57,984 bases of DNA. It comes from Candidatus Jorgensenbacteria bacterium RIFCSPLOWO2_01_FULL_45_25b (GTDB lineage Bacteria > Patescibacteriota > Minisyncoccia > UBA6257 > GWB1-50-10). The position numbers and the translations under genes are program-made. The stretch covers positions 1-57,984 of the forward strand of contig MFKK01000037.1 of NCBI GenBank assembly GCA_001781035.1. Direction: 5' to 3'. Position 1 is the first letter of the stretch. Every line of letters begins with the position of its first letter. The notes beneath the pieces were generated by a model that made no database searches, was not told the origin of the DNA, and worked only from the letters and a program-made list of their open reading frames with translations. This document shows positions 2,411-50,994 of the stretch, in pieces.

Positions 2411-2495
2411 GGAAGGGTGCCGGAGCGGTCTAACGGAACGGCTTGGAAAGCCGTGGCTCGAAAGGGCCTCGTGGGTTCGAATCCCACCCCTTCCG
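2411..2495 (+). tRNA. tRNA-Ser (anticodon GGA)
   Basis: Manual cloverleaf: acceptor GGAAGGG/CCCTTCC, 3-bp D stem, anticodon loop TTGGAAA, long variable arm GGCTCGAAAGGGCCTC, T arm GTGGG-TTCGAAT-CCCAC. Confidence 0.9.
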
Positions 2496-4130
2496 CAGAT
2501 TGGACACAAGTCGCTCATCAAGAGCGGCTTTGTTCTTATTTGATGCGCTAAAAACGAATTGAGGATAGGTTCTAATCTGGGCAATTTCGCTTTCAACCTT
2601 CGGCAGCTTTTCAAAGATGGTTTTGAACACGGGACGCAGTGTTATAGCGACTTTCTGGTCTTGTATGACGAGGTGCGAACCTAAACAGGCAAAGATGGCT
2701 CGCTTGGTCTCCATATCGCCGCGGGCGAACCACGTGCGAGCGTATCGCGCGAAGTTGAACGTGCGCTCGCTCAATTCGAGCCATTCCTCGATTTCCCTGT
2801 TCTGCGTGCTGATGCTGCCCTCCAGCGCCGCTTTCTGCTTCAACAGGCGCGTGCGGAGGTCTTGATACTGCTGGTCGGAGATGAGTTGCCCTTCCATATT
2901 CTCTGGCGAAGAATACTTGAGCAGAAGATTATCGAGCTGCTGCGTAATGCGGAGATGCTCGCGCTCGCTGTTTTTCAAAACGGCTTCGTGCGTTTGCGCC
3001 TGTGTCTGACGGATTTCGTGCAAGTATCGGATAGCCCATTCCTTGAACTTCTCGGAGATGGTAAGTTTGTTGATTTCAGCATCAATCTGTGCGCTCAACT
3101 CCTTTAACTCAACCGCCTTCTCCTGGCAGTTCTCATCTTTCTGCTTCGTGCAGCGATAGTAAATGTAGTGGTGGATGTTGCCGTTCTTCTGGTGCTTCAC
3201 CTTCTCCTCGGCGGTAATCATCGCGCCGCAGTTGCCGCACTTCATAATCCCCGTGAAAGCAAAGCGGTGTTTTTGCGGTCGCGGTCTGCCGTTGCGTCCG
3301 AGCAGCTTTTGCACGATGTCATATTCTTTCTCCGTAATCATTGGCTCGTGCTTTCCCTGGTACCAGTTGCCGCTGCCCGCGGGGTATTCAAACATCCCGT
3401 AATAGAACGGGTTGGTAAAGATTCGATATATTGAACTGCGGCACAAAGATTTGCCGATGAAGCGTTTTGTTTTTCGGGTTTTGAACTTCCATTCCTCCCT
3501 TGCGATTCTGACAATTTTAGGCGGCGTGTAGTTGCCTGTAAGCATCAAGTCCCACATACGGCGCACCGAACCGAAACGCTCCTCATCTTTTACGATATAG
3601 TTTCTGCCCTTCTCCTCGTCTTGTTTTGTATTCAAATACCCAAGCGGCGCGCGTGAAGGATACCAGCCCATCTTGAGCTTGGTTTTCAACCCGCGCTTCA
3701 CGTTCTTGCTCAAATCAAGCACGTACTGGTTCGCCACGCCGAACTCAACAGATGTAATGAGTACGTTGTCGTCTGGGTAGTAATCTTTGTCGCTCGTCTT
3801 GATGTGCCTCAACACTTCCTTTTGAAGCAGCCACTTTATCGTTCCTTCGTCCACGGGATTGCGGGCAAGGCGGTCGAGCTTCCAACAAAGAATACCCTGC
3901 GCTTCTCCCTTCTGGATGCGGGCAATCATATCATTAAAAATCTCCCTGCCTGGAGCTTTTGCGGATTTTGATTCTATGAATGGTTGCTTAATTACTTTCA
4001 AACCAGAACGCTCCGCAATTTCCTTGAGTGTCTCAAGTTGCGACTCAATACTCAAAACTTGCCTGTCGTCATCCTCGGTGGACTTGCGGCAATAGACAAA
4101 GTATTTGATTTTTGGATTATCGTTTATCAT
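2430..4130 (-). CDS. Large serine recombinase (integrase)
   Basis: N-terminal resolvase motif YCRKSTEDDDRQ, a recombinase domain, a Cys-rich zinc ribbon (CGNCG...CTKQKDENC) and a long coiled-coil tail. The 3' end overlaps tRNA-Ser antisense. Confidence 0.9.
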   Translation of the reverse strand: MINDNPKIKYFVYCRKSTEDDDRQVLSIESQLETLKEIAERSGLKVIKQPFIESKSAKAPGREIFNDMIARIQKGEAQGILCWKLDRLARNPVDEGTIKWLLQKEVLRHIKTSDKDYYPDDNVLITSVEFGVANQYVLDLSKNVKRGLKTKLKMGWYPSRAPLGYLNTKQDEEKGRNYIVKDEERFGSVRRMWDLMLTGNYTPPKIVRIAREEWKFKTRKTKRFIGKSLCRSSIYRIFTNPFYYGMFEYPAGSGNWYQGKHEPMITEKEYDIVQKLLGRNGRPRPQKHRFAFTGIMKCGNCGAMITAEEKVKHQKNGNIHHYIYYRCTKQKDENCQEKAVELKELSAQIDAEINKLTISEKFKEWAIRYLHEIRQTQAQTHEAVLKNSEREHLRITQQLDNLLLKYSSPENMEGQLISDQQYQDLRTRLLKQKAALEGSISTQNREIEEWLELSERTFNFARYARTWFARGDMETKRAIFACLGSHLVIQDQKVAITLRPVFKTIFEKLPKVESEIAQIRTYPQFVFSASNKNKAALDERLVSNLRKGWDSNPRGPFEPRLSKPFR

Positions 4131-4968
4131 TGTTTTTATGATTACCAGGATTCTTTCTGCGAAAGATTACGTGTATCTCGTTCTCGTCTCCTGGCTTTGT
4201 CTGTTTATCCTGCGACGGTTCTGGTTGAGAGGGCGCTTTCGGTTTGAATACCACCTGGAGGCTGCCGTCCTTCGGTCTCTCGAAATATCCCTCCTCCTGC
4301 TTCGCCTCTTCTAACAGCTTCTCCAGCTCCTGCTCCTCTTGTTGATTTTGAGATAAGGTTAACTCCTCTTCTTCGAGCGCTTCCTTTTTATTGTTTAGTA
4401 TTTTTTCTTTTTCCTCTGGCGTAAAGATGCTGCTGCTGCCATAGAAAGGGTCATTGCTTCGCGGGTCTGTCTCCAGTTCCCGTTTTCTCTTTGCGTATTT
4501 TTTCCATTCTTCGCTATCTTCCTTTGGCGAGCGTAACGCCGCAATCTCTTCTTCCTGCTCGCCTAATCTGTGGAATAAAATTGCAAATGCCAACCCTCCG
4601 AAAAACAATATCCCCCCAAGCGACTCGGACAATTCAAAACTCATCAAGCCAAGCACTATTGGTGAAATACAAATTGCGGCGGAGATTTTTGAAAGCGTTT
4701 TGTAGGTCATAATCATAGTTGCTCGCGGCAATCCCCACAAATCAAAAAGGGACAGCCAGAGCCTGCGACCCACAAGATTGAATGCACGAAGGCACCAATT
4801 GTGGAGGATAGCTGCCCCTTTCAGCCCGCAATTGGAGCCGTAAAAGGCAATTACCCACGTGCTGATATTCAAACTTGTAGGTCGCAAGTTCATTATACCA
4901 ACCCTGTCAAAAGCTGCAAGGGGGTAATCCATACCTGTGAATTGCAGCAATAATGTGAGAGTGTTCAT
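4117..4968 (-). CDS. Hypothetical membrane protein with acidic coiled-coil tail
   Basis: ATG at 4968 lies 3 nt after the upstream stop. The 3' end overlaps the recombinase start by 14 nt. It has TM segments and an E/K-rich tail. Confidence 0.6.
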   Translation of the reverse strand: MNTLTLLLQFTGMDYPLAAFDRVGIMNLRPTSLNISTWVIAFYGSNCGLKGAAILHNWCLRAFNLVGRRLWLSLFDLWGLPRATMIMTYKTLSKISAAICISPIVLGLMSFELSESLGGILFFGGLAFAILFHRLGEQEEEIAALRSPKEDSEEWKKYAKRKRELETDPRSNDPFYGSSSIFTPEEKEKILNNKKEALEEEELTLSQNQQEEQELEKLLEEAKQEEGYFERPKDGSLQVVFKPKAPSQPEPSQDKQTKPGDENEIHVIFRRKNPGNHKNNDKR

Positions 4969-4970
4969 AG

Positions 4971-5783
4971 TTACCACGTCATTGGTTTCTTCTCTTTGAT
5001 TCTCCCTTCCCGCGCCCATTGTTTTAGCAGTCCTCGTAACGCACTGAATGATGGGCTTGCGTCTCCATTGCGTTGTAGTTCCGAATAAGCTGCGAGCGCA
5101 TCTGATTCCTCGTAATAGCCTCGCAACATAATCAGCGTGCCTTTTGAGATTTCCCCCTTAATAGGTTCCGTATTCTTTGCCGTTTTTATATTTTCCGCCC
5201 TGATTTCTTTATCTGATTCCATTAGATGATTTCGTGTCTCATCCGTGCCACTGTTATAAGGTGGATTTTGAGACTGTTGACCCTGTTTTAGTGATACTGT
5301 TTTCGGCTTCCTTATCCCCTGTATAACAGTCTCAAAAGGAAGACTGTTAAGACTTGTCCAATGAGATGTCTCAAGCAGGGCATAGACGTTCGGCACGCGC
5401 CCCTTTGAGCGGCGGATGATTGCAATAATGCTGTACGCTTCCAGTATCCTGAATGCTCTAAATACAGTGCTCCTATTCGTTATTCCGCCCAGCTTCATAA
5501 CCGTTGCCGCGGCAGGAAAGCATATCTGCTTTTCGTGGTGCGCGTACTTTGCGAGAATGCAATACACTGTGGTTGTGCTGTCTGGGAATGCTGCGGCGTA
5601 CCCTTTCTCAAAGTATTCGTTATCCAAGTAAAGGCGCGTCTGTTTGACAGGCGGTCTTACGGGCAAGCCATCGAACGAATCCAGCTTTGGCTGCCATTTC
5701 TTTTTATTCAGAATGTTGCCTATGTTTTCCATTGTCATCGTCATTAAGCCACGATTTCTTAATCGGCTTATAGATTGCATCAA
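4971..5783 (-). CDS. Winged-helix DNA-binding protein (possible replication/regulatory protein of the island)
   Basis: ICFPAAATVMKLGGITNRSTVFRAFRILEAYSIIAI is wHTH-like. The start may be 5744-5732 (MTMTMENI). Confidence 0.55.
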   Translation of the reverse strand: MMQSISRLRNRGLMTMTMENIGNILNKKKWQPKLDSFDGLPVRPPVKQTRLYLDNEYFEKGYAAAFPDSTTTVYCILAKYAHHEKQICFPAAATVMKLGGITNRSTVFRAFRILEAYSIIAIIRRSKGRVPNVYALLETSHWTSLNSLPFETVIQGIRKPKTVSLKQGQQSQNPPYNSGTDETRNHLMESDKEIRAENIKTAKNTEPIKGEISKGTLIMLRGYYEESDALAAYSELQRNGDASPSFSALRGLLKQWAREGRIKEKKPMTW

Positions 5784-5895
5784 AGAGCGTCAAAAGCTGT
5801 GTTGCTTCTTCCATTGCCTGCTCATCGGAGATTTCGGTACCCTTCTCCTCTTTCCAAATTGCTTTGAACTCTTGTAATGCTTTATCGGAAGTCAT
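5704..5895 (-). CDS. Small acidic hypothetical protein
   Basis: 63-aa ORF in an operon context. Its start overlaps the upstream stop (5892-5895). Confidence 0.4.
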   Translation of the reverse strand: MTSDKALQEFKAIWKEEKGTEISDEQAMEEATQLLTLFDAIYKPIKKSWLNDDDNGKHRQHSE

Positions 5896-6155
5896 CGCTC
5901 GTATATCCGCGCCTTTAATGTTTTGAGTTGGTTGAAGAACGCTTGCGGCTCAACCCGTAAATCTCCTCGCCAGTACGCATTCACTCCTTCTTGCAGTCCA
6001 GCGGAGTTTTGAAAGATGAAGACCGACCGTGTGGGGCTTACTCGCTCCATTTCTTCAACGACAAAGCCAGAAACGCAAAGAGCCGCAGTCAACGAAAGGT
6101 CTGCGGTTCGAAAATCTTTGTTGTTCTGGTTCATCGTCATAGTTTGGGTAGCCAA
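5892..6155 (-). CDS. DUF5659-like small protein
   Basis: The pattern TADLSLTAALCVSGF...FIFQNS...FFNQLKTLKARI matches my memory of DUF5659, which is common in CPR and phage elements. Confidence 0.6.
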   Translation of the reverse strand: MATQTMTMNQNNKDFRTADLSLTAALCVSGFVVEEMERVSPTRSVFIFQNSAGLQEGVNAYWRGDLRVEPQAFFNQLKTLKARIYER

Positions 6156-6216
6156 AATAAAAACAAGCTACGTTTTCAGCGTAGCTGTTACAAAAAGAGC
6201 TGTCGTTTCTATCCTG

Positions 6217-6933
6217 TTAGTTCAGTGTCTTTCTTGCTCCTGCATTCCGTTTCTTGTCCTTGCTTTCTGTTTTTGGCAAGGCATTGAGTTGCTGACGCAG
6301 TTTTACTTCATCCACTTGAAGCTCTTTCAAATCGGCATCAGTAAGACTATTTCTGAACTCGACCGCTTTAATTGATGCGTTTGGGAAGAATGCTCTTTTG
6401 AGTTCTCCCTTAAAGCCCAAGTCGGCGATAATCTGCGCAAACTTTTTGGCTATATCCAATTTCGCAGCCCGCAATGCCTCCCTGGTTATTGTTGTATTCG
6501 GGTGTTCAATTGCAAACAAGATGAAGTCGTGATTTTCAGAAGCAAAGTTTGGCTTGCCGACAATGTACTTATCATTCACGATAACCTCTCGCGTTTTGGT
6601 AAGACACACAAGGTATTTCGGCTTCGCAGACTCCAAAAACCTTTCCAGCCTTTGCCTATCAATCGAGTAAGTCCAAACTGCCCGCGGGTGCGTCCGTGTA
6701 GCGTAAAGCAATCGTGAACGCGTAGATTGCGGCTTTTCCTCTTCGTACTGGAGTTTCTTGCGCTGAATCACTCCGCTTTTGCCCAACTCTGTAACAGCCC
6801 AAAGCAAGCCCTGTTCTGATAGGTCTGGTTTGAGTAAAGAGTCCCAATAGAACTCCACATCACCGTCCGCCGCATTCTTGTATTGGAGCGCATTTGTAAT
6901 AAGTTGAATAACCGCTCGAAGTTCTTTTGTCAT
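6217..6933 (-). CDS. Hypothetical protein
   Basis: ORF 6217-7104 trimmed to ATG 6933. The longer form overlaps the convergent-looking HTH gene and leaves no promoter space. Confidence 0.5.
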   Translation of the reverse strand: MTKELRAVIQLITNALQYKNAADGDVEFYWDSLLKPDLSEQGLLWAVTELGKSGVIQRKKLQYEEEKPQSTRSRLLYATRTHPRAVWTYSIDRQRLERFLESAKPKYLVCLTKTREVIVNDKYIVGKPNFASENHDFILFAIEHPNTTITREALRAAKLDIAKKFAQIIADLGFKGELKRAFFPNASIKAVEFRNSLTDADLKELQVDEVKLRQQLNALPKTESKDKKRNAGARKTLN

Positions 6934-7026
6934 ATCATTGTCATTTGAGTCGGCCACTGCCCTGTCAAAAGTTGCCCGATTCTTAATTGAAGTGTAGAAT
7001 AAAGTTATTAGTGAGTCAAAACTTTT

Positions 7027-7209
7027 ATGATAAAGACTTACACACTGCAAGACCTGGAAAAGATACTCGGCGTCAAGGAGCGGACGCTCTTTCGGTATAT
7101 TCAAAAGGGCTGGCTCAAAGGGTCAAAGCGCGGCAAATGGCGCTTTACCGACCAGGACATAAGGGACTTCCTCAAACACGGAAGAGATGACAGTCTAAAA
7201 GCGAAGTGA
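7027..7209 (+). CDS. Excisionase/MerR-type helix-turn-helix protein
   Basis: YTLQDLEKILGVKERTLFRYIQKGWLKGSKRGKWRFTDQDIRDFL is the typical Xis-family HTH pattern. Confidence 0.7.
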   Translation: MIKTYTLQDLEKILGVKERTLFRYIQKGWLKGSKRGKWRFTDQDIRDFLKHGRDDSLKAK

Positions 7210-7230
7210 GTAGCCTCAAACAAAAGAACT

Positions 7231-10200
7231 ATGCCAAAACTTCACGGAGTATTTATCGGAATAGACCGCTATGCTTCACCAGCGATAAACTGGCTTTCTT
7301 GTGCGAGAAGAGACGCGACTGCGCTCCACGCTCTTTTCGCTGACAACCTGCCAGGCGATTTGAAGCTACTGACTGATAAAGACGCCACTCGTTCAACTCT
7401 TGAGAAAGAACTAAAAAGTCTTTCGCAATGCGCTCCCGATGACATCGTGGTTTTTGCTTTTTCTGGACACGGCACAGAGACTCACGAGCTGGTAACGTAT
7501 GATACTGATAGGGCAAAGCTCTCGGCAACAACTATTTCCCTGAACCAATTAGGAGAACATTTTTCCAAGATACCTGCGCGTCGGCTTATCTGTATTCTTG
7601 ACTGCTGTTTCTCTGGCGGGATGGGAGCGAAAGCATTGCAGGTGGACGTTGTGCCCCGTGATATACCTTCGGGCGAAGAGTTGTTGAAACAATTATCTGG
7701 AGACGGAAGAGTAATCTTGACTGCATCGCTTGCGACAGAAAAGGCGTGGGAACACCAGAAACTCGGACACGGATTACTTACCCACTACCTGTTAGAAGCA
7801 TTGCAGGGGGCGGAAGAAGTACGCAAGAGCGGCAAGGTTGGTCTCTACAAGCTACTTGATTATGTAACAACCAAAGTAATAGATTCAGCTAAAATCTTCG
7901 GAGAAGAACAACACCCAGTATTACTTGGACAAATCAAGGAAGAAATAACGCTTCCGATTTTCAAACCAGGAAAACTTTATAAGGAAGCATTCCCCGAAAG
8001 AGATACAAGAAAAGTTACCCCCGACGTTCAATCGCTGTCTGCGTTTGGCTTCCCCGACGACCTTCTCAAAGCCTGGGCAGGCTCCTCAATAACCACACTG
8101 AATCAATTACAGGTGGACGCCATCAATGAGTTTAAGGTGCTCGATGGAGAGCACCTTGTTGTCTCTGCGCCCACCTCCGCTGGTAAAACTCTCATCGGTG
8201 AATTGGCTGCTTTGCAGGGCGTCATAGAAAGAAAACGTGCGCTCTTTTTATTGCCACTAAAGGCACTGGTAAATGATAAGTTGAGACATTTTGAGGAAAC
8301 ATATGGAGCGTTTGGATTACGGACTATACGAGCAACTGGAGAGAGCACCAGCGATGACATTTTGCCCTTGATGCGCGGGCAATACGATATTTGTTTGATG
8401 ACATATGAAAAGTTTTCAGCAATGATACTCGGCAGTCCCCACATACTCGACCAGGTAAGCACGATAGTGGTTGACGAGGTACAGATGATTGCCGACAAGT
8501 CTCGTGGCGTCAATTTGGAGTTCATTCTCACTCTTCTACGAATGCGACGGAAGCAAGGCATTGAGCCACAAGTAATCGCGTTATCTGCTGTGATTGGGGA
8601 TACGAATGGTTTTGAGAGGTGGTTGGGCGCGAGATTGCTACGACGCACCGAGCGCCCCGTACCATTAGACGAAGGTATTGTCAGATTGGATGGTACTTTC
8701 CGCTATATCGAATCTGATACGGGTAAAGAAAAGACCGTGCAGTCAGCACAAACACAATTCAGGAAAGGTAGCGGACAAGATGTCATCATTCCGCTTGTAG
8801 GAAAATTGGTCAAAGACGGCAAAAGCGTCATCGTGTTCAGGGAAACCAAGTCAGAAGCACAAGCGTGCGCACTTTACTTGGCTCGAAATCTGGGCTTACC
8901 GCCTGCTCAAGTCGCAGTGGATAATCTTCCGAACACAGACCCGTCTATTTCTTCACAAAAGCTACGAGAAACATTGAATGGTGGCGTAGCATTTCACATT
9001 TCTGACTTGGATGCAGAAGAGAGAAGACTGATAGAAGAGCAGTTTCGCGCCTCATCCTCCGCACTAAAAGTTATTGCTGCAACGACAACGCTGGCGATGG
9101 GAGTGAACACACCCACAGAGGCAGTTATTATCGCGGGATTATCCCATCCTGGAGACGTGCCATATTCTGTTGCGGAATATAAGAACATTGCGGGAAGAGC
9201 TGGGCGACTCGGTTATACAACACGTGGTTCCTCATTCCTTGTCGCTCTCACTCCGAGTGAGGAACATACGCTTTGGACGAACTACATACAAGCGAATCCA
9301 GAAGATTTACATTCAAAGTTCTTTGCTGACAATACCGACCCTCGTTCGCTGGTAATAAGAGTGCTGGTAGCCGTTCGTTCAAGGCGAGGGCTTACCGCTG
9401 ATGAGATTGTGGAGTTTTTGGAAGAGAGCTTCGGTTCTTTCCAGGAAAAGATAAAGAATCCTGCTTGGGCCTGGGATAAAAACCAAATCACGGCAGCAAT
9501 TGAAGAACTGCGTACTCATCGGCTCATCGAACAAGATAAAGATGGTTTCTACCATCCAACTCCACTTGGAAGACTGGCTGGTGAATCTGGTTTGGAAGTA
9601 GAATCAGTATTGCGAGTCGTCAGTGCACTACAAGGAATCCAGCAGGCTGATATTAGCGACCCAGCACTTATCGCTCTGACCCAAGTTACTGTTGAACTTG
9701 ACCAGGTTTTATTCCCGCTCAACAAAAGAAGTACACAGAAGGAGCCTCAAACTTGGATGACAGAAGTTAGGAATCAAAGAATACCTGGGAACATCATCAA
9801 CGCATTCCATCGTTCTATCCAAGACCAAACTGATGCGACACGACGGGCTAAAAAGGCAGTGGCCTGTCTCTTGTGGATTACAGATAAACCACTGGTAGAA
9901 ATCGAAAATGTGTTGATGCAGTTTGACCGTGCAGACACTGCTGCTGGCGCCATAAGAAGCGTGAGTGCCAGAGTTTGTGATGTTTTATCCACAGTTGCCA
10001 GAATCGCTGAACTACTCAATCCAGGATTTGATTTGGCTGCTCGTGTCGAGCGATTGTTGGTGCGACTTGAAATCGGCATCCCAGCAGGGGTAGTAGAACT
10101 GGGCAGTATCTTCGGTAGGGTTTTCAATCGCGGTGATTATCTCTGTTTAATGAAAAACGGAATCACAACTAAAGAGGCATTTGAAGCCGCAAAAGAGGAT

Positions 10201-10326
10201 GCACTTTTGCAGTGTTTAGAAAACAATCGGGAAAAGCTCGCGGCAGCAAAAGTGAGGCTTGAAGAATACGAGCGAGAGGAAAAGCCGATACCTGGCTCCC
10301 CAATTCTTCCAGAATACGAAGGATAA
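7231..10326 (+). CDS. Caspase-like (peptidase C14) domain fused to Ski2/Hel308-like SF2 helicase
   Basis: C14 dyad motifs FAFSGHG and ILDCCFSGG. Helicase motifs APTSAGKT, LPLKAL, TYEKF, VDEVQ, LSAV, ATTTLAMGVNTP and AGRAGRLG. Confidence 0.85.
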   Translation: MPKLHGVFIGIDRYASPAINWLSCARRDATALHALFADNLPGDLKLLTDKDATRSTLEKELKSLSQCAPDDIVVFAFSGHGTETHELVTYDTDRAKLSATTISLNQLGEHFSKIPARRLICILDCCFSGGMGAKALQVDVVPRDIPSGEELLKQLSGDGRVILTASLATEKAWEHQKLGHGLLTHYLLEALQGAEEVRKSGKVGLYKLLDYVTTKVIDSAKIFGEEQHPVLLGQIKEEITLPIFKPGKLYKEAFPERDTRKVTPDVQSLSAFGFPDDLLKAWAGSSITTLNQLQVDAINEFKVLDGEHLVVSAPTSAGKTLIGELAALQGVIERKRALFLLPLKALVNDKLRHFEETYGAFGLRTIRATGESTSDDILPLMRGQYDICLMTYEKFSAMILGSPHILDQVSTIVVDEVQMIADKSRGVNLEFILTLLRMRRKQGIEPQVIALSAVIGDTNGFERWLGARLLRRTERPVPLDEGIVRLDGTFRYIESDTGKEKTVQSAQTQFRKGSGQDVIIPLVGKLVKDGKSVIVFRETKSEAQACALYLARNLGLPPAQVAVDNLPNTDPSISSQKLRETLNGGVAFHISDLDAEERRLIEEQFRASSSALKVIAATTTLAMGVNTPTEAVIIAGLSHPGDVPYSVAEYKNIAGRAGRLGYTTRGSSFLVALTPSEEHTLWTNYIQANPEDLHSKFFADNTDPRSLVIRVLVAVRSRRGLTADEIVEFLEESFGSFQEKIKNPAWAWDKNQITAAIEELRTHRLIEQDKDGFYHPTPLGRLAGESGLEVESVLRVVSALQGIQQADISDPALIALTQVTVELDQVLFPLNKRSTQKEPQTWMTEVRNQRIPGNIINAFHRSIQDQTDATRRAKKAVACLLWITDKPLVEIENVLMQFDRADTAAGAIRSVSARVCDVLSTVARIAELLNPGFDLAARVERLLVRLEIGIPAGVVELGSIFGRVFNRGDYLCLMKNGITTKEAFEAAKEDALLQCLENNREKLAAAKVRLEEYEREEKPIPGSPILPEYEG

Positions 10327-10388
10327 AAAGGTTCCCAGGCAAAAAGCATCAACTTGAAGGCCACGAAGAGTTCAAACCATAACATTTT

Positions 10389-10898
10389 ATGGATGTAACT
10401 TATATAAAACATAGACTTGATTTATATGTCGGCTCCATTCAATACGGTGTAGGTAATTGCAAAAACGCATACGCATACCTCAAACAAAAGAATGATGAGC
10501 TGAATGAAGCGTGGCGCAATGGTACGACGCACAGTCTCAACGAATTGGGGCATCTCGATAAGGTTTTCAAAGATTACCTGATTTTGAAAATTGCGGGTCT
10601 CTTTGACAAACGTGGCGATACGCTATCGCTTTTTAGTTTGCAGAAGTTTCTCCAAAACAATCTGCCCGATAGTGAGGGCTTATTTGCACCTGGCTTTGTG
10701 GAGATTCAAAATAAGTACCAGGACACAATCAAGAAAGTCGTGAAAGTACGACATAAAGCTGTTGCACACACGAGCGATGATTTCCCCGACAACATTCTTT
10801 ACACGCAGGACTTATTGGCAATGCCGATAATGGAGTTTCTGAAAGACGTTGAAAACCTTGCTGCGCAGGTTGGCACAATCACATTTCCAGTGAGGTAG
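10389..10898 (+). CDS. AbiU2-like HEPN-domain protein (putative RNase)
   Basis: LKIAGLFDK...KVRHKAVAHTSDD fits the Rx4-6H HEPN motif. Same strand, 62 nt after the helicase fusion. Confidence 0.5.
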   Translation: MDVTYIKHRLDLYVGSIQYGVGNCKNAYAYLKQKNDELNEAWRNGTTHSLNELGHLDKVFKDYLILKIAGLFDKRGDTLSLFSLQKFLQNNLPDSEGLFAPGFVEIQNKYQDTIKKVVKVRHKAVAHTSDDFPDNILYTQDLLAMPIMEFLKDVENLAAQVGTITFPVR

Positions 10899-11326
10899 AG
10901 GATTTTGCCCCAAAATCTCTCCATCTGGAGACGGCTACCCCAGCGCCCGCGCAAAGTTGAAAATCAAAACACCCCCCATCTATTTTGGGTTTTTAAGAAA
11001 AACGGGCACAAGAAAGACGGGGGTACACCCCGTCGGGACAGTCGCAGCGGTGATACTGTTTGAAATCGGCGATGCTGTTATACAGAAGCATACAGGGTTA
11101 AATACTGATAAGTACCATATTGAAAAACAGGGGGCTGCCAAAACAAGCCAATGTTATGTCAAAAGTTGCAAGGATGCTATTGATTGGTAGGTACGTAATG
11201 AAGCTGTACGGAATAGACCAGGAAATACTATACTACCCGTGCTGACTCCAACGAGAGTTTTGGGATGAAAAACCAGTTAGACGGGTTCTGCCAATAGGTA
11301 CGAACATCGTCCACTACCCCCCGCCA

Positions 11327-12313
11327 ATGCATATTATATTTCCTAAAAAATTACAGAAGGGTGATGAGGCGCGCGTTATCGCGCCCTCACGTTCGCTCGG
11401 TATTGTTTCCGAGGAGGTACGAAGTGTCGCGAACCGGAGATTTGCCGAACTTGGTTTGAAGATAAGTTTTGGCAGGCACGCGGAAGAAAAGGATGATTTT
11501 TTTTCTTCCAGCATTCAGTCGCGGGTGGAGGATTTGCACGAGGCCTTCCTTGACGCGAATGTCGTGGCAATTTTTACGGCCATCGGCGGTTTTAATTGCA
11601 ATCAGTTGTTTCAATATTTTGATTGGAATCTGATACAAAATAATCCGAAGATATTGTGCGGTTACTCTGACATCACGGCTTTGAGTAACGCGATGTTCAC
11701 AAAAACCGGACTTGTTTCATATTCGGGTCCGCATTATTCCACTTTTGGTCAGGAGCTCTATTTTGACTATACGTTGGACTACGCGAAGCGATGTTTGTTT
11801 TCTAATAATAGATTTCAAATTCATCCAAGCATGGAATGGAGCGATGATTTGTGGTATAAAAATCAAAAGACGCGCGACCTTATTCCAAACCGTGGATTCC
11901 TTGTGATAAATGAGGGGAGAGCTTCGGGCAGAATTCTTGGGGGCAACCTTGGTACGTTTAACTTATTGCAGGGCACGGAATATTTTCCTAATCTTAGGGA
12001 TTCTATTTTGTTTCTTGAAGATGACCTTGAGTCATTGCCTCACACTTTTGACCGTGATTTACAGTCGCTTATTCATGTACCCGGATTTGCCGGAGTCCGA
12101 GGGATTGTGATTGGTAGATTTCAGAAGGCGAGCAATATGCCTGATGAGTTATTGATTAAAATTATCAAAACAAAAAAAGAATTGGATAGGTTACCGATTC
12201 TTGCGAACGTTGATTTCGGACACACCGACCCTAAATTCACCTTTCCCATAGGCGGGGAAGCGAATATGGAAATTCTGAACGGGAAAGCGAAACTGGAAAT
12301 AGTAAAACATTGA
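11327..12313 (+). CDS. S66-family LD-carboxypeptidase (LdcA/MccF-like)
   Basis: GYSDITAL nucleophile motif and C-terminal DFGHTDP. Confidence 0.8.
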   Translation: MHIIFPKKLQKGDEARVIAPSRSLGIVSEEVRSVANRRFAELGLKISFGRHAEEKDDFFSSSIQSRVEDLHEAFLDANVVAIFTAIGGFNCNQLFQYFDWNLIQNNPKILCGYSDITALSNAMFTKTGLVSYSGPHYSTFGQELYFDYTLDYAKRCLFSNNRFQIHPSMEWSDDLWYKNQKTRDLIPNRGFLVINEGRASGRILGGNLGTFNLLQGTEYFPNLRDSILFLEDDLESLPHTFDRDLQSLIHVPGFAGVRGIVIGRFQKASNMPDELLIKIIKTKKELDRLPILANVDFGHTDPKFTFPIGGEANMEILNGKAKLEIVKH

Positions 12314-12363
12314 AGTTTTTGTTTTTTTGAGTTTGTTGCTGGAGTTGGTAAACTAGAAATGTG

Positions 12364-13056
12364 ATGATAGCAAAAAAAAGATTGAAGGTTGGTGTTATCA
12401 GGTTTCCGGGTTCAAATTGTGATTTTGACACGCTTCATTTTTTTAAAAAGTTCGGACATAAGGCGGAATTTATTTGGTATAAGGACGTAAGCATTCCGCG
12501 TTATGATTTACTTGTTCTTCCCGGCGGGTTCGCGTTTGGGGATCGTGTATACGCCAAAGCAACGGGGCATTATGATATAGATCCGGGTGTTCTCGCGATT
12601 TCTTCGCCGGTACTTAAGGCCATTAAACGGGTGGTTCGTTTGGGCGTGCCGATTTTGGGTATTTGCAACGGTTTTCAGATTCTCGTAAAAGCAGGGCTCT
12701 TGCCCGGTAAGCTGGTTCAAAACGATTCAAAAAAGTTTTTTTGCGACTATGTTCGCTGTGCAGTTCAGGGCGCGTCTTTTTTTGGCGACCCTTCCATGCT
12801 TGGGAAAACATTTATTATTCCGGTCGCGCACGGGTATGGCAGATATATAGCGTCAGCACGTTTGTTGAATAGATTGCAGAAAAACAAGCAGATTTTTTTA
12901 AGATATTCAACATTTAATCCGAACGGGTCCGCGCTGAATATCGCGGGAGTTTGCAACGAGCAAAAAACTATTTTTGGCATGATGCCCCATCCGGAGCGGT
13001 CGCTTGATGGGAAGTATTTTATGCGCGCAATAGAAACATATGTCGCGGGAAACTGA
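12364..13056 (+). CDS. purQ: Phosphoribosylformylglycinamidine synthase, glutaminase subunit
   Basis: VGVIRFPGSNCD, GICNGFQIL and MPHPER motifs. Confidence 0.9.
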   Translation: MIAKKRLKVGVIRFPGSNCDFDTLHFFKKFGHKAEFIWYKDVSIPRYDLLVLPGGFAFGDRVYAKATGHYDIDPGVLAISSPVLKAIKRVVRLGVPILGICNGFQILVKAGLLPGKLVQNDSKKFFCDYVRCAVQGASFFGDPSMLGKTFIIPVAHGYGRYIASARLLNRLQKNKQIFLRYSTFNPNGSALNIAGVCNEQKTIFGMMPHPERSLDGKYFMRAIETYVAGN

Positions 13057-14584
13057 TATACCAAAGATTCTTGCCGAGGCGATGGCGAGCGAGCATACAA
13101 GCTACAAGAGCACGAAGAAGTTTTTGTCGCGTCTCCATACCAAGGGCAAGTATGTGATACAAGGGCCCGGCGAGAACGCGGGAATTGTTGATTTGGGAGG
13201 AGGATGGGCGCTCGCGATGCGCGTGGAGAGCCATAACCATCCGTCGTTTATAAAGCCATATCACGGGGCCGCGACAGGAGTCGGCGGAATCTTGCGGGAT
13301 ATTTTTACCATGGGCGCGCGCCCGATCGCGCTTTTGGATATTCTTCGTTTTGGAACTGATAGGAATGCTCGTCGTCTTTTGCGCGAGGTTGTTCGCGGTA
13401 TTTCCGATTATGGTAATTGTGTTGGGGTGCCTGTTGTCGGCGGAGATTTGTATGTTGACAGCACATACAATCATAATTGTCTTGTGAATGTCGCGGCGTT
13501 CGGTTTGGTTCGGAAAGATAAGATTATTTATGGCAATGCCCTTACTCCCGGAAATGATTTAATTTATGTCGGCGCGCGGACGGGGAGAGACGGGGTGGGC
13601 GGCGCGCAGATGGCGTCCGCGAATCTTGACGCGCAGGATGAGGCTACTATTCAAGATGCCGACCCGTTTCTTGAGAAGTTACTTTTGGAGGCGTGTTTAG
13701 AGCTTGCCGATACGCCGTGGATTGAAGGAATGCAGGATATGGGCGCGGCTGGACTTTTGTGTTCCACGTCCGAAGTCGTGCTCCGCGGACGCAAGAAAAC
13801 GAAAAAGAATCTTGGCGCGAGAGTGTATCTTAATCGTGTTCCGACTAAGGCGCGAAATATGTCGCCGGTTGAGATGTTGCTTTCAGAGTCACAGGAGCGA
13901 ATGTTAATTGTTGGACATTGCAGACATCGCGAAAAAATTCTTAAGGTGTTTAAGAAGTGGGATTTAGAGGCATGCGTGGTTGGCGCGGTAACGAATGACG
14001 GGAAGTATACGATTGTGTATGACACTCCGCGCAAAAAGAATATTATTTTGCCAATGGAGTTTTCAGATATTTTTCCTGATGTACGAGAGGATTGGGATTT
14101 GACGAGTTGGAAAGCACAAGGTACGAAACACGAAAAAGCCGCGAGTCGGATTACACAAGAGATTTGGCATCAGTATGATTGGATGGTTGGTATTCGGACG
14201 CTTAAGGGTCCGAATAAGTCGGGGCGTTACGCCGTGCTTGATGTGCCGGAAATTGGAAAGGAAATTGTTATCGCGTGGAGCTCGGATGAGGGATTGTCGG
14301 ACAGCGATCCGGCGCGCGGGATTCAACACGCGTTTGATGTTTGCTTGCGTCGTTTGCGTTCTCTTCGCGCGATGCCTCTTGGAATTACGAATTGCCTTAA
14401 TTTCGGGCACCCAAAAGATTCAATGGGCGCGTTTGCAGAAACGATAGATGCTCTTACGAAACGCTGTAAAGAGAAAAATATTCCGGTTGTGGGCGGAAAT
14501 GTGAGTTTGTATAACGCGCACAGAGCGTACTCAATCAAACCAACCCCTGTGCTTATTATGGCGGGGGTGAGGAGACGAGTGTAA
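13040..14584 (+). CDS. purL: Phosphoribosylformylglycinamidine synthase subunit PurL, C-terminally short
   Basis: SEHTSYKS, GPGENAGIVD, ESHNHPS, GAATGVGGILRD and GGNVSLYN motifs. At 514 aa it lacks the last AIRS_C-like domain. Confidence 0.85.
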   Translation: MSRETDIPKILAEAMASEHTSYKSTKKFLSRLHTKGKYVIQGPGENAGIVDLGGGWALAMRVESHNHPSFIKPYHGAATGVGGILRDIFTMGARPIALLDILRFGTDRNARRLLREVVRGISDYGNCVGVPVVGGDLYVDSTYNHNCLVNVAAFGLVRKDKIIYGNALTPGNDLIYVGARTGRDGVGGAQMASANLDAQDEATIQDADPFLEKLLLEACLELADTPWIEGMQDMGAAGLLCSTSEVVLRGRKKTKKNLGARVYLNRVPTKARNMSPVEMLLSESQERMLIVGHCRHREKILKVFKKWDLEACVVGAVTNDGKYTIVYDTPRKKNIILPMEFSDIFPDVREDWDLTSWKAQGTKHEKAASRITQEIWHQYDWMVGIRTLKGPNKSGRYAVLDVPEIGKEIVIAWSSDEGLSDSDPARGIQHAFDVCLRRLRSLRAMPLGITNCLNFGHPKDSMGAFAETIDALTKRCKEKNIPVVGGNVSLYNAHRAYSIKPTPVLIMAGVRRRV

Positions 14585-14632
14585 ACGATTGGATGATTTG
14601 TTTATTGTTGTTATGTGTGGTATTGTATTGAT

Positions 14633-14860
14633 ATGTCGCAGATGAAAAGGCAATTTACCGCCTTGTATAAAAAGCAGGGCAAGTGGTATGTTGGTTGGAT
14701 TGAAGAAATTCCTGGAGTAAACACTCAAGGACGAACGCTTCAAGAAGCGAAGTTGAATTTAAAAGAGGCTTTGAATTTGGTTTTGGAAACGAACAAGCTT
14801 TTGTCCGGCGGAAGTGAGGACAGAGAAGTGATCCGAGAGTCGCTTATGGTTGCTTTGTAG
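14633..14860 (+). CDS. hicB: HicB-family antitoxin
   Basis: YVGWIEEIPGVNTQGRTLQEAKLNLKEALNLVLE is the UPF0150/HicB pattern. Confidence 0.7.
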   Translation: MSQMKRQFTALYKKQGKWYVGWIEEIPGVNTQGRTLQEAKLNLKEALNLVLETNKLLSGGSEDREVIRESLMVAL

Positions 14861-14873
14861 AGATTATTAACTT

Positions 14874-15068
14874 ATGAAGCGAATAGATTTGGTGAAACAT
14901 CTTTTTAATGAAGAGTGTGTTTTATTTAGAGAGGGCGGTAAGCATAGTGTTTTCTTTAATCCTAAAACAAAGAATGTTTCTACGGTGCCTCGTCATAAGG
15001 AAATAAATAGTTTTCTTGCGGAGAAGATTTGTAAGGATTTAGGGATAAGGGAGTTGAAAAAGAAATAA
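14874..15068 (+). CDS. hicA: HicA-family mRNA interferase toxin
   Basis: REGGKHSVFFNPKTKNVSTVPRHKEINSFLAEKICKDLGI is the YcfA/HicA pattern. Confidence 0.75.
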   Translation: MKRIDLVKHLFNEECVLFREGGKHSVFFNPKTKNVSTVPRHKEINSFLAEKICKDLGIRELKKK

Positions 15069-48023: not shown

Positions 48024-48324
48024 GGCTAGGGGTGCTGGACGAAGTTAGAACCCTTCTCCTGCAAGGAAAATCGTCTTTTTCATACAGCTTTGTTCTTTGA
48101 TTTTACCGTATTGCAGGATTCAGTAGTAATTGCCATCGACAGGACTTGAACCCGCAACTATTGACTTTTTTTGACAGTTGCTATAATTATGGTGTTCATT
48201 GAAAATCAATGAGGCGAGCATTTTGGACGCCAAATACTTGGTTTCTAAAGTGCTCGTCTCAATTTCTGAGACGGCCGTAGTCCCGCACGATGCGGGATAA
48301 TTCCAAACCATAAGGAGGTGTGCG

Positions 48325-49077
48325 ATGAGAAAGTCGCATACTGCTGGTTGGGCCTCGGATGCCCCGACGCCTGCCCAGCTCAAAGAGCTGTTTTCCCAGA
48401 TTGCGAGCGGCCGTATCAACAAGCGGCGGCTCCAGACCTTCCTGCGAAGCGGGATGGTTTTCAAGAACGAGGAGATTGCTCGCCTGATTCTTGGAGACGA
48501 CATCGTCTTCCCAGACGAAGTCGCTGAGAGTCGCGGGCTCTCCTACACCGACGCCCAGCTCAAGCACTTTGCGGAGATGATGCCTTCGGAGGAGGTGCTT
48601 CGCTGGTGCAAGACCAACGGCTACGCCATTGTAGCGGGGCCCCCGTCGCCGATGGGACTACTAGAGGTTCGAACTTTCAAGTCCGAACACTTTTACTCGA
48701 AGGGTGGCGGGTGGTATGGGGGGGGTCACGCCTTCGGCAACGGCGACAGGGCCGAGACCGAGTGGCTCGCCATCCGCAAGGAGCCCGTTCCGAACTCTCT
48801 CAATCAGAGCTGGAGCGAGCAACTGCGGCTTCTTTCGAAGGACGAGCAAGTTCCGAACACTGGCGAGATGAGCTGGTTCATCACGACCTTCTACGAGGTG
48901 CGTGGCGTGCGGCTCTTCGAGGAGGTCTATGTTCGGACCTCCTCTGTCACTTCGGGCGGCAGCCGTGTCCTTGTCGGCCGCTTCGACGAGGTCGGGCTCT
49001 ATGTCAGCGGCTGCTGGGACGGCGGCCGCCGCTACAGCTTCGGTTTGGCCGCCTCTCGGAAAAGTTCTGAACCTTGA
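48325..49077 (+). CDS. DGR variable (target) protein with C-terminal VR
   Basis: Strong SD aaggagg. It is GC-rich, and the C-terminus RVLVGRFDEVGLYVSGCWDGGRRYSFGLAASR aligns to the TR translation. Confidence 0.85.
   Translation: MRKSHTAGWASDAPTPAQLKELFSQIASGRINKRRLQTFLRSGMVFKNEEIARLILGDDIVFPDEVAESRGLSYTDAQLKHFAEMMPSEEVLRWCKTNGYAIVAGPPSPMGLLEVRTFKSEHFYSKGGGWYGGGHAFGNGDRAETEWLAIRKEPVPNSLNQSWSEQLRLLSKDEQVPNTGEMSWFITTFYEVRGVRLFEEVYVRTSSVTSGGSRVLVGRFDEVGLYVSGCWDGGRRYSFGLAASRKSSEP
48946..49059 (+). repeat. DGR variable repeat (VR)
   Basis: 114 nt aligning gap-free to 49427-49540, with 20 differences, all where TR has A. Confidence 0.9.
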
Positions 49078-49108
49078 AGTCTTGAGGGCTTGACCCTCTT
49101 GAATACTT

Positions 49109-49142
49109 GAGCTTCCGTCCGATTTTTTTTCGGCGGAAGCTC
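49109..49142 (+). terminator. Hairpin/terminator downstream of VR
   Basis: gagcttccg...cggaagctc with an inner tccga-T7-tcgg, followed by a T-run. Confidence 0.7.
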
Positions 49143-49426
49143 TTTTCTTTTGTTTTTCAAAAAGTTATTCTGTAAATGTTCTGCTAATGCAGGTGCGGCT
49201 ACGGTTTCACCTCGCAGGACATCCCATCTTTGAGATTTCACCAGAGTATCGTCGCCTACGGGTTACGATAGCGCGTGAACCAGACGGAGATAGAACTTCT
49301 TGCTCATCTTTAGTGGAGATAGCGAAAACATCGCTTGCTCCCGAATAAAATACAGGAAAGAGAGGATATAAGCCTTTGGCAGTAAACCTCAATTTCCAGT
49401 GCCACGGACGAGGATGGGCAAACCAT

Positions 49427-49540
49427 GTCACTTCGGACGGCAACCGTGTCAATGTCGGCAACTTCGACGAGAACGGGCTCAATGTCAACAACTACTGGGA
49501 CGACAACCGCAACTACAACATCGGTTTGGCCGCCTCTCGG
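49427..49540 (+). repeat. DGR template repeat (TR)
   Basis: Adenine-rich (AAC codons) counterpart of VR. Confidence 0.9.
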
Positions 49541-49590
49541 CAGTCATTCTCCGTCAATGTGAAATACCCTCGGAAAGGAGGGTATTTCAT

Positions 49591-49941
49591 TTAACGCTCT
49601 TTAGTTGACCTAATCCAACCACCAAGCTGTCTTCCGATTTCATCAACCGTCTCCTGCCACTTAATGTATTTGTTGACATCAATAACTTTTACTTCTTTAC
49701 AAAGCCGTAAGAACACTCGCAGAAAGTTTAGTTTGACGCTGGTTTTTTCTAACACGGGTAGTTTTTCGGTCTTTGAAAGCTGACTTGCCCAAAGCAAATT
49801 TTCCAATACATCTAAAGTAATGTTTTCGCATCTCTGCCAAAGCGTGTGGCGGTCTTGTTTCTTAACATTGTTTCGGTAAGCATAAAACTCCTTATACAGC
49901 TCGTAAGTTATTTTGAAAATTGGTATATCAAAATCATCCAT
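49591..49941 (-). CDS. avd: Four-helix-bundle protein, Avd-like (accessory variability determinant)
   Basis: 116 aa with a helical pattern ending ...DEIGRQLGGWIRS, typical of the 23S-rRNA-IVS/Avd family. It lies next to TR and RT. Confidence 0.7.
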   Translation of the reverse strand: MDDFDIPIFKITYELYKEFYAYRNNVKKQDRHTLWQRCENITLDVLENLLWASQLSKTEKLPVLEKTSVKLNFLRVFLRLCKEVKVIDVNKYIKWQETVDEIGRQLGGWIRSTKER

Positions 49942-49944
49942 ATT

Positions 49945-50994
49945 ATGAAAATCTATAAAAATGTTTTTGAAAAAATCATCTCACTGGAAAATCTGTTTTC
50001 GGCGTGGGATAAGTTTAGTAGCGATAAAAAGAAAAAACGGGATGTTGTTGAGTTTGAATGGGAGCTTGAGCAAAACATTTTTCAGCTTCATCGGGATTTG
50101 AAAAATAAAAAGTATAAGCACGAAACATATACTTCGTTTTATATTCAAGACCCCAAACAGAGGCACATTCACAAAGCTATAGTCAGAGATCGAGTGCTCC
50201 ATCACGCAATTTTCAGCGTGTTGAATCCTATTTTTGAGCCGACATTTATCGCACATTCGTTGTCGTGTCGTGTCGGCAAAGGAACGCATAAAGGAGTAGA
50301 TATTTTGGGCAGCATAACGAAGGCAGTCAGCCACAACATTCATAAGTCTTGTTTCGCTCTTAAATGCGACATTAAGAAATTTTTTGGGACAGTTGACCAT
50401 GCTATCCTTATGACCCTGCTTACAAAACGAATCAAAGACGCCGATGTGATGCTGGTTCTTAAAGAAATCGTAGAGAGTTTCAAATCCGAATACTCTAATC
50501 TTTTTCAAGCAAAGGGACTGCCCATCGGTAATTTGACTTCCCAGCTTTTTGCTAATATCTATCTCAACGAGTTTGACCAATTTGTTAAACATCGCTTGAA
50601 GATTGAAAATTACGTTCGTTATACGGACGACTTCGTAATAATTTCTGACAGCAAAACTTTTCTTGAAAATCTTATTGAACCAATCAGAAAATTTTTGCAC
50701 GATAGGCTGGCTTTGGAACTTCATCCCAGAAAAGTCAGTATCCGCAAATTGCACTGGGGCGTAGATTTTCTCGGCTATATTGTTCTCCCACACCATCGCT
50801 TGTTGCGGAGAAAAACTAAACAACGAATTTTGAGGAAACTGCATAAAAGAGTTTCTGAATACAAAAGCGGTATTATTACGAAACAAACACTGGAACAATC
50901 TCTCCAGTCTTATCTCGGTGTTCTTTCTCATGCGAATACTCATAAATTTGGCGATGAATTAAAAAATCAATTCTGGTTTTGGTTAAGTGAATAA
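49945..50994 (+). CDS. DGR-type reverse transcriptase
   Basis: IGNLTSQLFANIYLNEFD (the [LIV]GxxxSQ hallmark) and YVRYTDDFVII (YxDD). Confidence 0.9.
   Translation: MKIYKNVFEKIISLENLFSAWDKFSSDKKKKRDVVEFEWELEQNIFQLHRDLKNKKYKHETYTSFYIQDPKQRHIHKAIVRDRVLHHAIFSVLNPIFEPTFIAHSLSCRVGKGTHKGVDILGSITKAVSHNIHKSCFALKCDIKKFFGTVDHAILMTLLTKRIKDADVMLVLKEIVESFKSEYSNLFQAKGLPIGNLTSQLFANIYLNEFDQFVKHRLKIENYVRYTDDFVIISDSKTFLENLIEPIRKFLHDRLALELHPRKVSIRKLHWGVDFLGYIVLPHHRLLRRKTKQRILRKLHKRVSEYKSGIITKQTLEQSLQSYLGVLSHANTHKFGDELKNQFWFWLSE

Follow-up and report, generated by a model that had tools for sequence, protein, structure and literature searches.

We analysed a contig of 57,984 nucleotides (MFKK01000037.1, referred to here as the window) from Candidatus Jorgensenbacteria bacterium RIFCSPLOWO2_01_FULL_45_25b, whose genome, of Patescibacteria type, comprises 0.80 Mb in 38 contigs, the window being contig C37. 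Near the left end of the window a gene for a large serine recombinase runs into the antisense strand of a tRNA-Ser(GGA) gene, and a further piece of recombinase coding sequence is found at the opposite end of an 8,828-bp island (approximately 2495 to 11322) that stops four bases ahead of the start codon of an S66 carboxypeptidase gene. The features that define the two ends of this island are:

2411 to 2496, plus strand: tRNA-Ser(GGA), the integration target, intact (ARAGORN)
2430 to 4130, minus strand: large serine recombinase, 566 aa, integrated isoform (Pfam, PHROG and PDB matches)
2493 to 2496, plus strand: left copy of the CCGC core common to both junctions
2508 to 2540, plus strand: terminator-like hairpin of nine pairs followed by the T-rich TGTTCTTATT, 12 nt past the tRNA and antisense within the recombinase coding sequence
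11228 to 11320, minus strand: detached 3' end of the recombinase coding sequence (30 codons and a TAG stop), which includes the element arm of the attachment site attR (homology)
11321 to 11326, plus strand: right copy of the CCGC core (11321 to 11324) followed by CA; the S66 ATG (11327) comes immediately after the G-CCA with which the tRNA originally ended and which has been displaced to this point

We conclude, with a probability that we put at roughly 85%, that positions 2495 to 11322 are an integrated 8.8-kb mobile element belonging to a Patescibacteria-wide family in which the recombinase gene spans the attachment site attP.

The recombinase matches the Pfam domains Resolvase (PF00239; E 2e-19, residues 11-155), Recombinase (PF07508; E 8e-8) and Zn_ribbon_recom (PF13408; E 4e-8), the PHROG integrase family (E 4e-67) and, by sequence in the PDB, the A118 integrase. 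It carries the catalytic motif YCRKSTEDDDRQ (RKST), of which R15, K16 and S17 are nearly invariant in 95 homologues, and only serine-recombinase domains, with no tyrosine-recombinase domain, were returned by Pfam and Foldseek. The best matches in phage and plasmid searches are at most 27.5% identical to this protein, and a scan of IMG/VR viral contigs with two degenerate peptide patterns taken from the alignment confirmed no relatives. The open reading frame (ORF) overlaps the tRNA gene by 67 nt, such that residues 1 to approximately 545 are encoded by the element (2497-4130) while the last 20 or so (...KGWDSNPRGPFEPRLSKPFR) come from the antisense strand of the tRNA. The tRNA aligns over its full length with the tRNA-Ser(GGA) of five relatives that have no island, and the chromosomal arm of attL consists of its 3' part (the T arm and acceptor strand).

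A scan of species-representative genomes detected 80 loci with relatives of the recombinase, the closest five of which (L022 to L026) encode proteins with 70-79% identity. Three of these loci, L022, L023 and L026, share with the island the recombinase (74-79% amino acid identity), a DUF5659 protein, a 63-aa ORF and an HTH_17 protein, and differ in cargo; the elements measure 5.5, 10.3 and 8.5 kb, respectively, as compared to 8.8 kb here. L022 occupies the same host site (HtpX, tRNA-Ser(GGA)) in another genus, L023 lies at tRNA-Ser(TGA), and L024 and L026 lie at tRNA-Trp. Comparison of the window with the related loci by blastn identified a block of 100-125 nt (window 11204-11328) that matches the far ends of all three elements with 81-86% identity (L022 4358-4456, L023 1364-1464 and L026 872-994). 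When these far ends are aligned, similarity breaks off at ...GCGG on the recombinase strand, which is the CCGC core, and the outer flanks are unrelated. Conservation of this block in three independent elements at other sites sets the right border of the island. A second copy of the tRNA 3' end, in the form of a direct repeat, is absent from the window, where only chance matches of 13 nt or less were found; this absence is expected for a serine recombinase, and the right border is instead marked by the displaced piece of the recombinase gene (11228-11322, minus strand).

The tetranucleotide composition of the island is foreign-like: it is the most deviant of 175 equal-sized segments of the genome (0.256 versus 0.138 +/- 0.030, approximately 3.9 standard deviations). 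Its G+C content is ordinary (46.7% versus 45.3 +/- 1.5%), and 14-mers that recur in the genome occupy 1.6% of its positions versus 4.2% in the rest of the window, a depletion of about 2.6-fold. An initial annotation of this DNA had described a serine-recombinase island of about 9 kb at tRNA-Ser(GGA), free of the dispersed repeats found elsewhere in the window, without a second tRNA 3' end and followed by host backbone from 11327. The island and the missing repeat of the tRNA end were both borne out, the former with borders now fixed by the conserved ends of three related elements and the latter by a repeat search of the window. Repeat depletion also holds, as measured on genome-recurrent 14-mers and not family by family. 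The resumption point was right to within about 5 bases (the conserved end is at 11322), and what follows is outside the element, but the stretch from 11.3 to 20.3 kb is itself variable. As regards the proposed k-mer and G+C check for foreign origin, the tetranucleotides were deviant but G+C was not distinctive.

The block at the far end continues the recombinase gene. Once the element-encoded end of the gene (...CTT GTG TCC AAT CTG CGG) is joined to the far block (GGG GTA GTG GAC GAT GTT ...), the frame is open for 30 more codons, starting VVDDVRTYWQNPSNWFFIPKLSLES and giving the full tail GVVDDVRTYWQNPSNWFFIPKLSLESARVV, up to a TAG at 11228-11230. Because the frame stays open across the joined ends, attP is placed inside the recombinase gene, which integration splits; as read from the sequence, integration appears to move the last 30 codons of the gene to the far end of the island. 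The tail peptide is 93% identical to that of L026, 90% to that of L023 and 79% to that of L022. In all four elements this frame alone is open, the other five frames having stops, and the TAG is conserved. Pairwise differences in the first 25 tail codons are mostly synonymous (CGT/AGA, CTC/TTA, TCG/TCA and CCA/CCG), and the amino acid changes cluster in the last four. Displaced tails are also present in L032 and L034, two loci at tRNA-Lys with recombinases of about 46% identity, each having its own tail approximately 9.7 kb from the junction. In L032 the displaced tail is present twice, at 660 and 1834 and thus 1.2 kb apart, and L029 has a tail piece (13161-13220) 8 kb away on the other side of its tRNA-Gln, arrangements that suggest tandem or neighbouring elements.

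Both the overlap with a tRNA and the unsplit form of the gene recur among homologues. Of 21 full-length homologues in species representatives, 15 have an ORF that runs out within an antisense tRNA, with overlaps of 14-81 nt, and the tRNAs entered are those for Ser, Trp, Gln, Asn, Arg, Lys and Glu. An overlap of this kind between recombinase frame and tRNA marks an in-gene attP and recurs across a large clade of Patescibacteria. A protein search with the last 137 residues of the joined sequence gave 169 hits, the best 120 of which were classified: the tail is contiguous in 11 (e.g. ...KCPTFRRAVDDVRTYWQTATERIFIPSLSLNYAKIN), 38 read into antisense T-loop codons (DSN, ESN or GSN) and 64 terminate no more than a few codons from the crossover. 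None of the homologues examined ended before the crossover. One contig with an unsplit 574-aa recombinase (P0016), L122 from Joint Genome Institute (JGI) sample 3300032731, is 11,465 nt long, has no tRNA and ends in a direct terminal overlap of 141 nt, the usual signature of a circular molecule; L122 is circular, with a size of 11.3 kb. One of its strands encodes a DUF5659 protein, a 62-aa ORF, a Toprim/DUF3854 protein and the recombinase while the other encodes cargo and an HTH_17 protein, which is the gene order expected from a circularised island. Unsplit genes are also present on L121, L123 and L124, whose cargo comprises restriction-modification, GmrSD and AAA_13 genes, and DUF5659 is found on L121 and L123. 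The island belongs to a widespread family, undescribed in the literature searched, of serine-integrase elements that target tRNA genes and cut their own integrase gene on integrating.

The host genome itself has four recombinase copies, each facing a tRNA (Ser-GGA, Gln-CTG, Arg-GCG and Leu-GAG). The three paralogues of the island enzyme, at C11:14137-15372, C27:1734-3143 and C27:20526-21380, are 34-44% identical and convergent with the Gln-CTG, Arg-GCG and Leu-GAG tRNAs; two of the three run off contig ends, and C27:1734-3143, which ends 130 nt short of tRNA-Arg, is truncated-looking and may be decayed.

In tRNA orientation, attL reads ...GGTTCGAATCCCACCCCTTCCGC joined to AGATTGGACACAAGTCGCTC... 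and attR reads ...GGTACGAACATCGTCCACTACCCCCCGC joined to CAATGCATATT.... In this island, as in L026, the core common to attL and attR is CCGC; it is reduced to CCG in L022 and extends over 13 nt in L023. Serine integrases require a non-palindromic central dinucleotide, and since CC (2493-2494 and 11321-11322) is the sole such dinucleotide in the core, the crossover is probably located there, at tRNA positions 71-72 by our own count. In the tRNA arm of the four elements, the T-loop sequence TTCGAA begins 17 nt ahead of the core; in the element arm, all four have a look-alike (TACGAA, TTCTAA or TGCGAA) that begins 22 nt ahead of it. For the LI integrase, the zinc-ribbon-domain motif of attP lies 5 bp further out from the centre than that of attB (Rutherford et al., PMC3783163). 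The spacings of 17 and 22 nt match this 5-bp shift of serine integrases and suggest, by analogy, that the enzyme reads T-loop DNA; such recognition would explain the use of different tRNAs by close relatives. Inverted copies of the element arm beside the tRNA did not occur above chance in the window or in four related loci. The reconstructed empty site is ...CCTTCC-G-CCA-ATG, in which the encoded CCA directly abuts the S66 start codon. A second T-loop-like sequence, ATTAGAACCTATCC (IRTYP), lies about 75 nt before the crossover in the 3' region of the recombinase gene (window ~2575-2600) and is mirrored past the crossover by GTTCGTACCTATTGG (VRTYW; window ~11290-11310); these DNA and peptide motifs recur in the family.

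A hairpin at the same place as that at 2508-2540, but of differing sequence, is present in about 14 of 17 folded family members by our own count, usually with a T-rich run. We infer that a terminator supplied by the element takes over from that of the tRNA itself, which was carried 8.8 kb away by integration.

Structural consequences of integration were examined on P0016, which was modelled with AlphaFold2 from 95 sequences (mean predicted local distance difference test score, pLDDT, of 79.6). The model has a catalytic domain, a recombinase domain, zinc-ribbon strands (299-344), a coiled coil of two helices (363-469) and a small C-terminal domain that ends at about residue 540, followed by a tail (544-574) with pLDDT below 50. 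Its top Foldseek matches are the SPbeta, phiC31, Bxb1 and LI integrases, with E values down to 6e-21. The crossover falls directly after the last confidently folded element and integration therefore spares all domains; on the basis of this model, the integrated isoform is probably still active.

These observations can be assembled into a mechanism. In a free circular form, the recombinase gene would cross attP and encode a protein of about 575 residues with the conserved 30-residue tail. This enzyme would bring attP together with a tRNA gene's 3' end, the T-loop DNA (TTCGAA) probably serving as the motif for the zinc-ribbon domain and the acceptor strand as the region for the recombinase domain, and strands would cross at CC, the final two bases of the acceptor stem. 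Integration would keep the tRNA body, with the element providing the discriminator base and a new terminator hairpin, whereas the recombinase gene would come to terminate inside the antisense tRNA, with its true tail 8.8 kb away at attR. The integrated isoform, if active as its intact domains suggest, would be nearer to Mx8 IntP/IntX than to a 'suicidal' integrase, and the swap of tails may signal integration state, tuning activity or stability. Excision would then require the integrated isoform together with a directionality factor, for which the HTH_17, DUF5659 and 63-aa proteins are candidates. We tentatively propose, as a possibility that we hold to be rather doubtful in its entirety, that generic tRNA features (T-loop DNA as the zinc-ribbon motif, the acceptor end as the core) are read by a large and so far uncharacterised serine-integrase clade, allowing its close relatives to move from one tRNA gene to another, and that the clade uses its in-gene attP as a state switch, a control of directionality that would be independent of a recombination directionality factor and new for serine recombinases. 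If this switch reading were true, the tailed episomal enzyme would be integration-proficient, and the integrated isoform, whose tail is either encoded by the tRNA or missing, would be altered in directionality or stability.

Several observations weigh against an integrated element with a split gene. The tail with low pLDDT is represented in few rows of the alignment used for modelling, and because it doubles as a DNA arm of attP the coding signal is confounded over its first ~27 nt. The shifted T-loop motif occurs on one arm per site, the other arms being without clear symmetry, and a start codon for S66 directly after the tRNA CCA of the reconstructed site, with no visible ribosome-binding site, is unusual. 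No empty site, circular junction or excision product of the island was seen in the contigs of the strain that were retrieved by means of three proteins of the flanks or the island; these contigs are 99.5-100% identical and have the island present wherever they reach past the tRNA junction. The ends of two Rifle scaffolds of the strain (see below) at position 2496 fit an assembly branch point but equally fit a repeat shared among tRNA-Ser genes. A rival idea is that the far-end block is only a cis-acting DNA site (an attP arm, promoter or operator) with a fortuitous frame, the protein ending at or before the crossover. Near invariance of the first ~27 nt past the core even in distant members, as for a protein-binding site, the predicted disorder of the tail and the 64 hits that stop at the crossover, which indicate that a tail-less protein is tolerated when integrated, are all in keeping with this idea. 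We nevertheless consider it quite improbable because conservation extends ~75 nt past the core, farther than the ~25 bp that a serine-integrase half-site spans, the differences follow a codon-wise pattern (CGT/AGA, CTC/TTA and TCG/TCA) with a conserved stop codon, contiguous tailed proteins occur in at least 11 independent clusters and no examined homologue ends before the crossover. Absence of an empty site, together with carriage of the island at or near 100% identity by all strain assemblies and the truncated look of one of the other three genome copies (C27 1734-3143), could instead mean that the island is an immobile, decaying remnant, with the tRNA overlap and far-end block as relics. 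This explanation is unlikely given that the gene is intact and in frame in both of its pieces, its tail has 79-93% identity to the tails of other elements, the Resolvase domain with its RKST motif matches Pfam (E 2e-19), the core is kept at both junctions and the composition is still foreign.

The extent and nature of the element could also be read differently. A larger mobile unit, extending to ~20.3 kb (tRNA-Pro) as a composite island with S66, PurQ, PurL, HicAB and neighbours, would account for PurQ being present in none of the 40 relatives searched and for a gene order in relative G009 in which tRNA-Ser is directly followed by genes found here at 20.9-28.4 kb. These two findings mark 11.3-20.3 kb as a variable stretch but one that lies outside the element, and we give the larger unit little credence: three related elements end at the same block as that at 11228-11322, 11.3-20.3 kb holds housekeeping genes (UppS, CspA and a tRNA-binding protein), recurrent 14-mers are near the window-typical level from ~14.5 kb on, and the compared relatives are from other genera, where rearrangement is common. 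A run of S66, PurQ, a short PurL and HicB/HicA at 11327-15068 may be a separate acquisition. The combination of integrase- and excisionase-like genes beside a tRNA is reminiscent of a prophage or phage satellite, yet there is no capsid, terminase, portal or tail match in PHROGs or Pfam, the PHROGs matches being to integrase, excisionase and helicase only. With no relative confirmed in IMG/VR, phage and plasmid recombinases that are so distant and elements of 5.5-11 kb that are too small for a tailed phage, we regard a prophage or phage satellite as highly improbable. An 8.8-kb integrated element with attP in its recombinase gene thus remains our preferred reading, and the intactness of the sequence suggests that this copy is currently mobile.

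The initial annotation had proposed a comparison with relatives lacking the insertion: five relatives of other genera keep HtpX...tRNA-Ser(GGA) without the recombinase, but the assemblies fetched for the same strain are all occupied. An exact empty site is not alignable in the other genera because the genes downstream of tRNA-Ser differ. When JGI metagenome contigs were scanned for exact matches to the region upstream of the tRNA, a single contig was obtained, and it breaks off 18 nt beyond the tRNA. The two scaffolds mentioned above, L113 and L114 (ANAN16, Rifle scaffolds of the strain), end exactly at 2496, the junction between tRNA and element. Another contig, L117, runs from the 5' half of tRNA-Ser(GGA) into tRNA-Ser(CGA) sequence, which indicates that tRNA repeats confuse assembly at this junction, heterogeneity of the population being the other possible cause of the breaks. 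In the recombinase-less relative G022 (L016 1213-1347), a stretch of 50 codons beyond tRNA-Ser(GGA) is similar to the recombinase's C-terminal region (50% identity, E 2e-7) and may be the scar of a past element.

Between the recombinase and the displaced tail, the island encodes a leftward operon and a rightward arm:

4117 to 5019, minus strand: 300-aa ORF of no family, with hydrophobic and charged coiled-coil-like stretches
4971 to 5783, minus strand: HTH_36 DNA-binding protein of 270 aa (public annotations give 255-257 aa; PF13730, E 1e-7)
5704 to 5895, minus strand: 63-aa core ORF, 70-80% identical in L022, L023 and L026
5892 to 6155, minus strand: DUF5659 core protein (PF18903, E 5e-11), 70-76% identical in L022, L023 and L026
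6217 to 7104, minus strand: 295-aa ORF of no family (246 aa in one gene call), leading the leftward operon (ORF call)
7027 to 7209, plus strand: HTH_17/MerR excisionase-like protein (PF12728, E 6e-9; PHROG excisionase, E 6e-9)
7231 to 10326, plus strand: caspase (Peptidase_C14) fused to a Ski2/Hel308-type DEAD-box helicase (DEAD/Helicase_C), 1031 aa (Pfam)
10389 to 10898, plus strand: AbiU2-like HEPN protein, 169 aa (PF18734, 25.7 bits, just below the Pfam cut-off of 26.8)

The gene content that the initial annotation had assigned to both arms (DUF5659, small ORF and HTH_36; HTH_17, caspase-helicase and HEPN) was supported by Pfam, and its left end, a tRNA-Ser overlapped by a 566-aa serine recombinase, was recovered by ARAGORN and by the three recombinase domains in Pfam. 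The gene overlaps that it gave for the operon stand at 4117/4130 and 5892/5895, where the stop of the DUF5659 gene overlaps the start of the 63-aa ORF, but that at 4968/4971 varies with the choice of start codon, and the overlap is 4971-5019 if the listed ATG (5019) is used. The 63-aa ORF has weaker copies in L027, L029, L036, L037 and L072, and DUF5659 also occurs on the contigs with an unsplit recombinase (L121-L123). The 300-aa ORF differs between elements, with just short patches common to L023, L024 and L030. The HTH_17 gene is divergent from the leftward operon, is 51-53% identical in L022, L023 and L026 and has counterparts on L121 and L122; its product is, by sequence, a candidate directionality factor or regulator.

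The caspase-helicase fusion matches PADLOC models for HamB-like helicases (E 1e-33) and a caspase (E 4e-16) and the PHROG branch-migration helicase (E 3e-73), whereas the AbiU2-like HEPN protein has no match in PADLOC or PHROG. Together these two proteins most likely form an anti-phage module. A Hachiman system was considered and rejected as there is no HamA among the island proteins scanned with PADLOC and no DUF1837 in the island ORFs searched with Pfam: Hachiman pairs the HamB helicase with HamA (DUF1837), whereas the island helicase carries a caspase domain and is partnered by the AbiU2-like HEPN protein.

Elsewhere in the window, 48325-50994 looks like a diversity-generating retroelement, with a reverse transcriptase (49846-50994), an Avd-like four-helix-bundle ORF (49591-49941, minus strand), a target ORF (48325-49077) that ends ...GSRVLVGRFDEVGLYVSGCWDGGRRYSFGLAASRKS and an asparagine-rich template copy (...GNRVNVGNFDENGLNVNNYWDDNRNYNIGLAASRQS) at 49376-49594. 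A similar reverse transcriptase/Avd pair adjoins a recombinase on contig C27 (L020 136-1545). A second tail-like motif at 48032 adjoins the retroelement of the window, where there is no recombinase, and was set aside as probably due to chance.

Comparison with known systems indicates which features of the family are shared and which are new. The island recombinase resembles the serine integrases of phages and integrative and conjugative elements (LI/A118, phiC31, Bxb1 and SPbeta SprA) in having the same domains, a zinc ribbon with a coiled-coil insert, a very short attL/attR core without long direct repeats, the 5-bp motif shift and a nearby excisionase-like gene. Unlike these enzymes, the island family targets tRNA 3' ends, has attP in its own reading frame and resides on 5-11 kb elements of Patescibacteria without virion or conjugation genes. 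According to the Islander paper (PMC4383910), use of tRNA genes as targets is known for tyrosine integrases only and not for serine integrases. The island is similar to Islander/TIGER islands in its insertion at a tRNA 3' end, adjoining integrase gene and accessory or defence cargo, but differs in having neither a tyrosine integrase nor a displaced tRNA repeat, the last acceptor bases alone being common to both ends.

Integrase genes that extend across attP are described for Mx8 and SSV (PMC4383910). In Mx8 IntP/IntX, attP is within the integrase coding sequence and the new 3' end alters attachment-site specificity without inactivating the enzyme (PMC6070905), while the self-partitioning integrases are archaeal tyrosine enzymes that are partitioned on integration into a tRNA gene (PMC8371274; PMC7253208). 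Our element shares with Mx8 a bacterial setting, an attP within the integrase coding sequence and the gain of a new 3' end, probably without inactivation, but the Mx8 enzyme is a tyrosine recombinase on a full-sized temperate phage, with unrelated chemistry, sites and family, so that the likeness is one of layout. SSV-type integrases similarly have the site inside the integrase gene and are partitioned upon integration into a tRNA; these archaeal tyrosine enzymes, however, are split into two substantial parts thought to be inactive, whereas the island swaps only a 30-residue, unstructured-looking tail. All folded domains are intact after integration and the island is therefore closer to Mx8 than to the archaeal 'suicidal' integrases. 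A further parallel is the integration-dependent immunity of cluster G, N and P mycobacteriophages, where attP lies in a coding gene and integration into a tRNA alters the C-terminus and hence stability or activity; in these phages the gene is that of the repressor and the integrase is a tyrosine enzyme, in contrast to the island where the gene is that of the serine recombinase itself. Our literature search, whose coverage was incomplete, returned nothing relevant on a serine integrase with an in-gene attP or on large serine recombinases in Patescibacteria.

Here we have described a family of serine integrases that targets tRNA genes, apparently through features common to all tRNAs, and an in-gene attP for a serine integrase, a layout that the literature searched describes only for tyrosine integrases (Mx8 and SSV-type). 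The displaced gene tail is usable as an exact border marker where a direct repeat is absent. Serine integrases are the main tools for insertion of large DNA, and their natural targets are usually protein-coding or intergenic; if confirmed, the family would supply integrases with conserved, predictable landing sites in many organisms and a natural experiment on the C-terminal extension and directionality. Finally, Patescibacteria have very small genomes, and in these organisms integrative elements of 5-11 kb appear to shuttle defence genes between tRNA sites, with four such integrase genes being held by this genome of 0.8 Mb.

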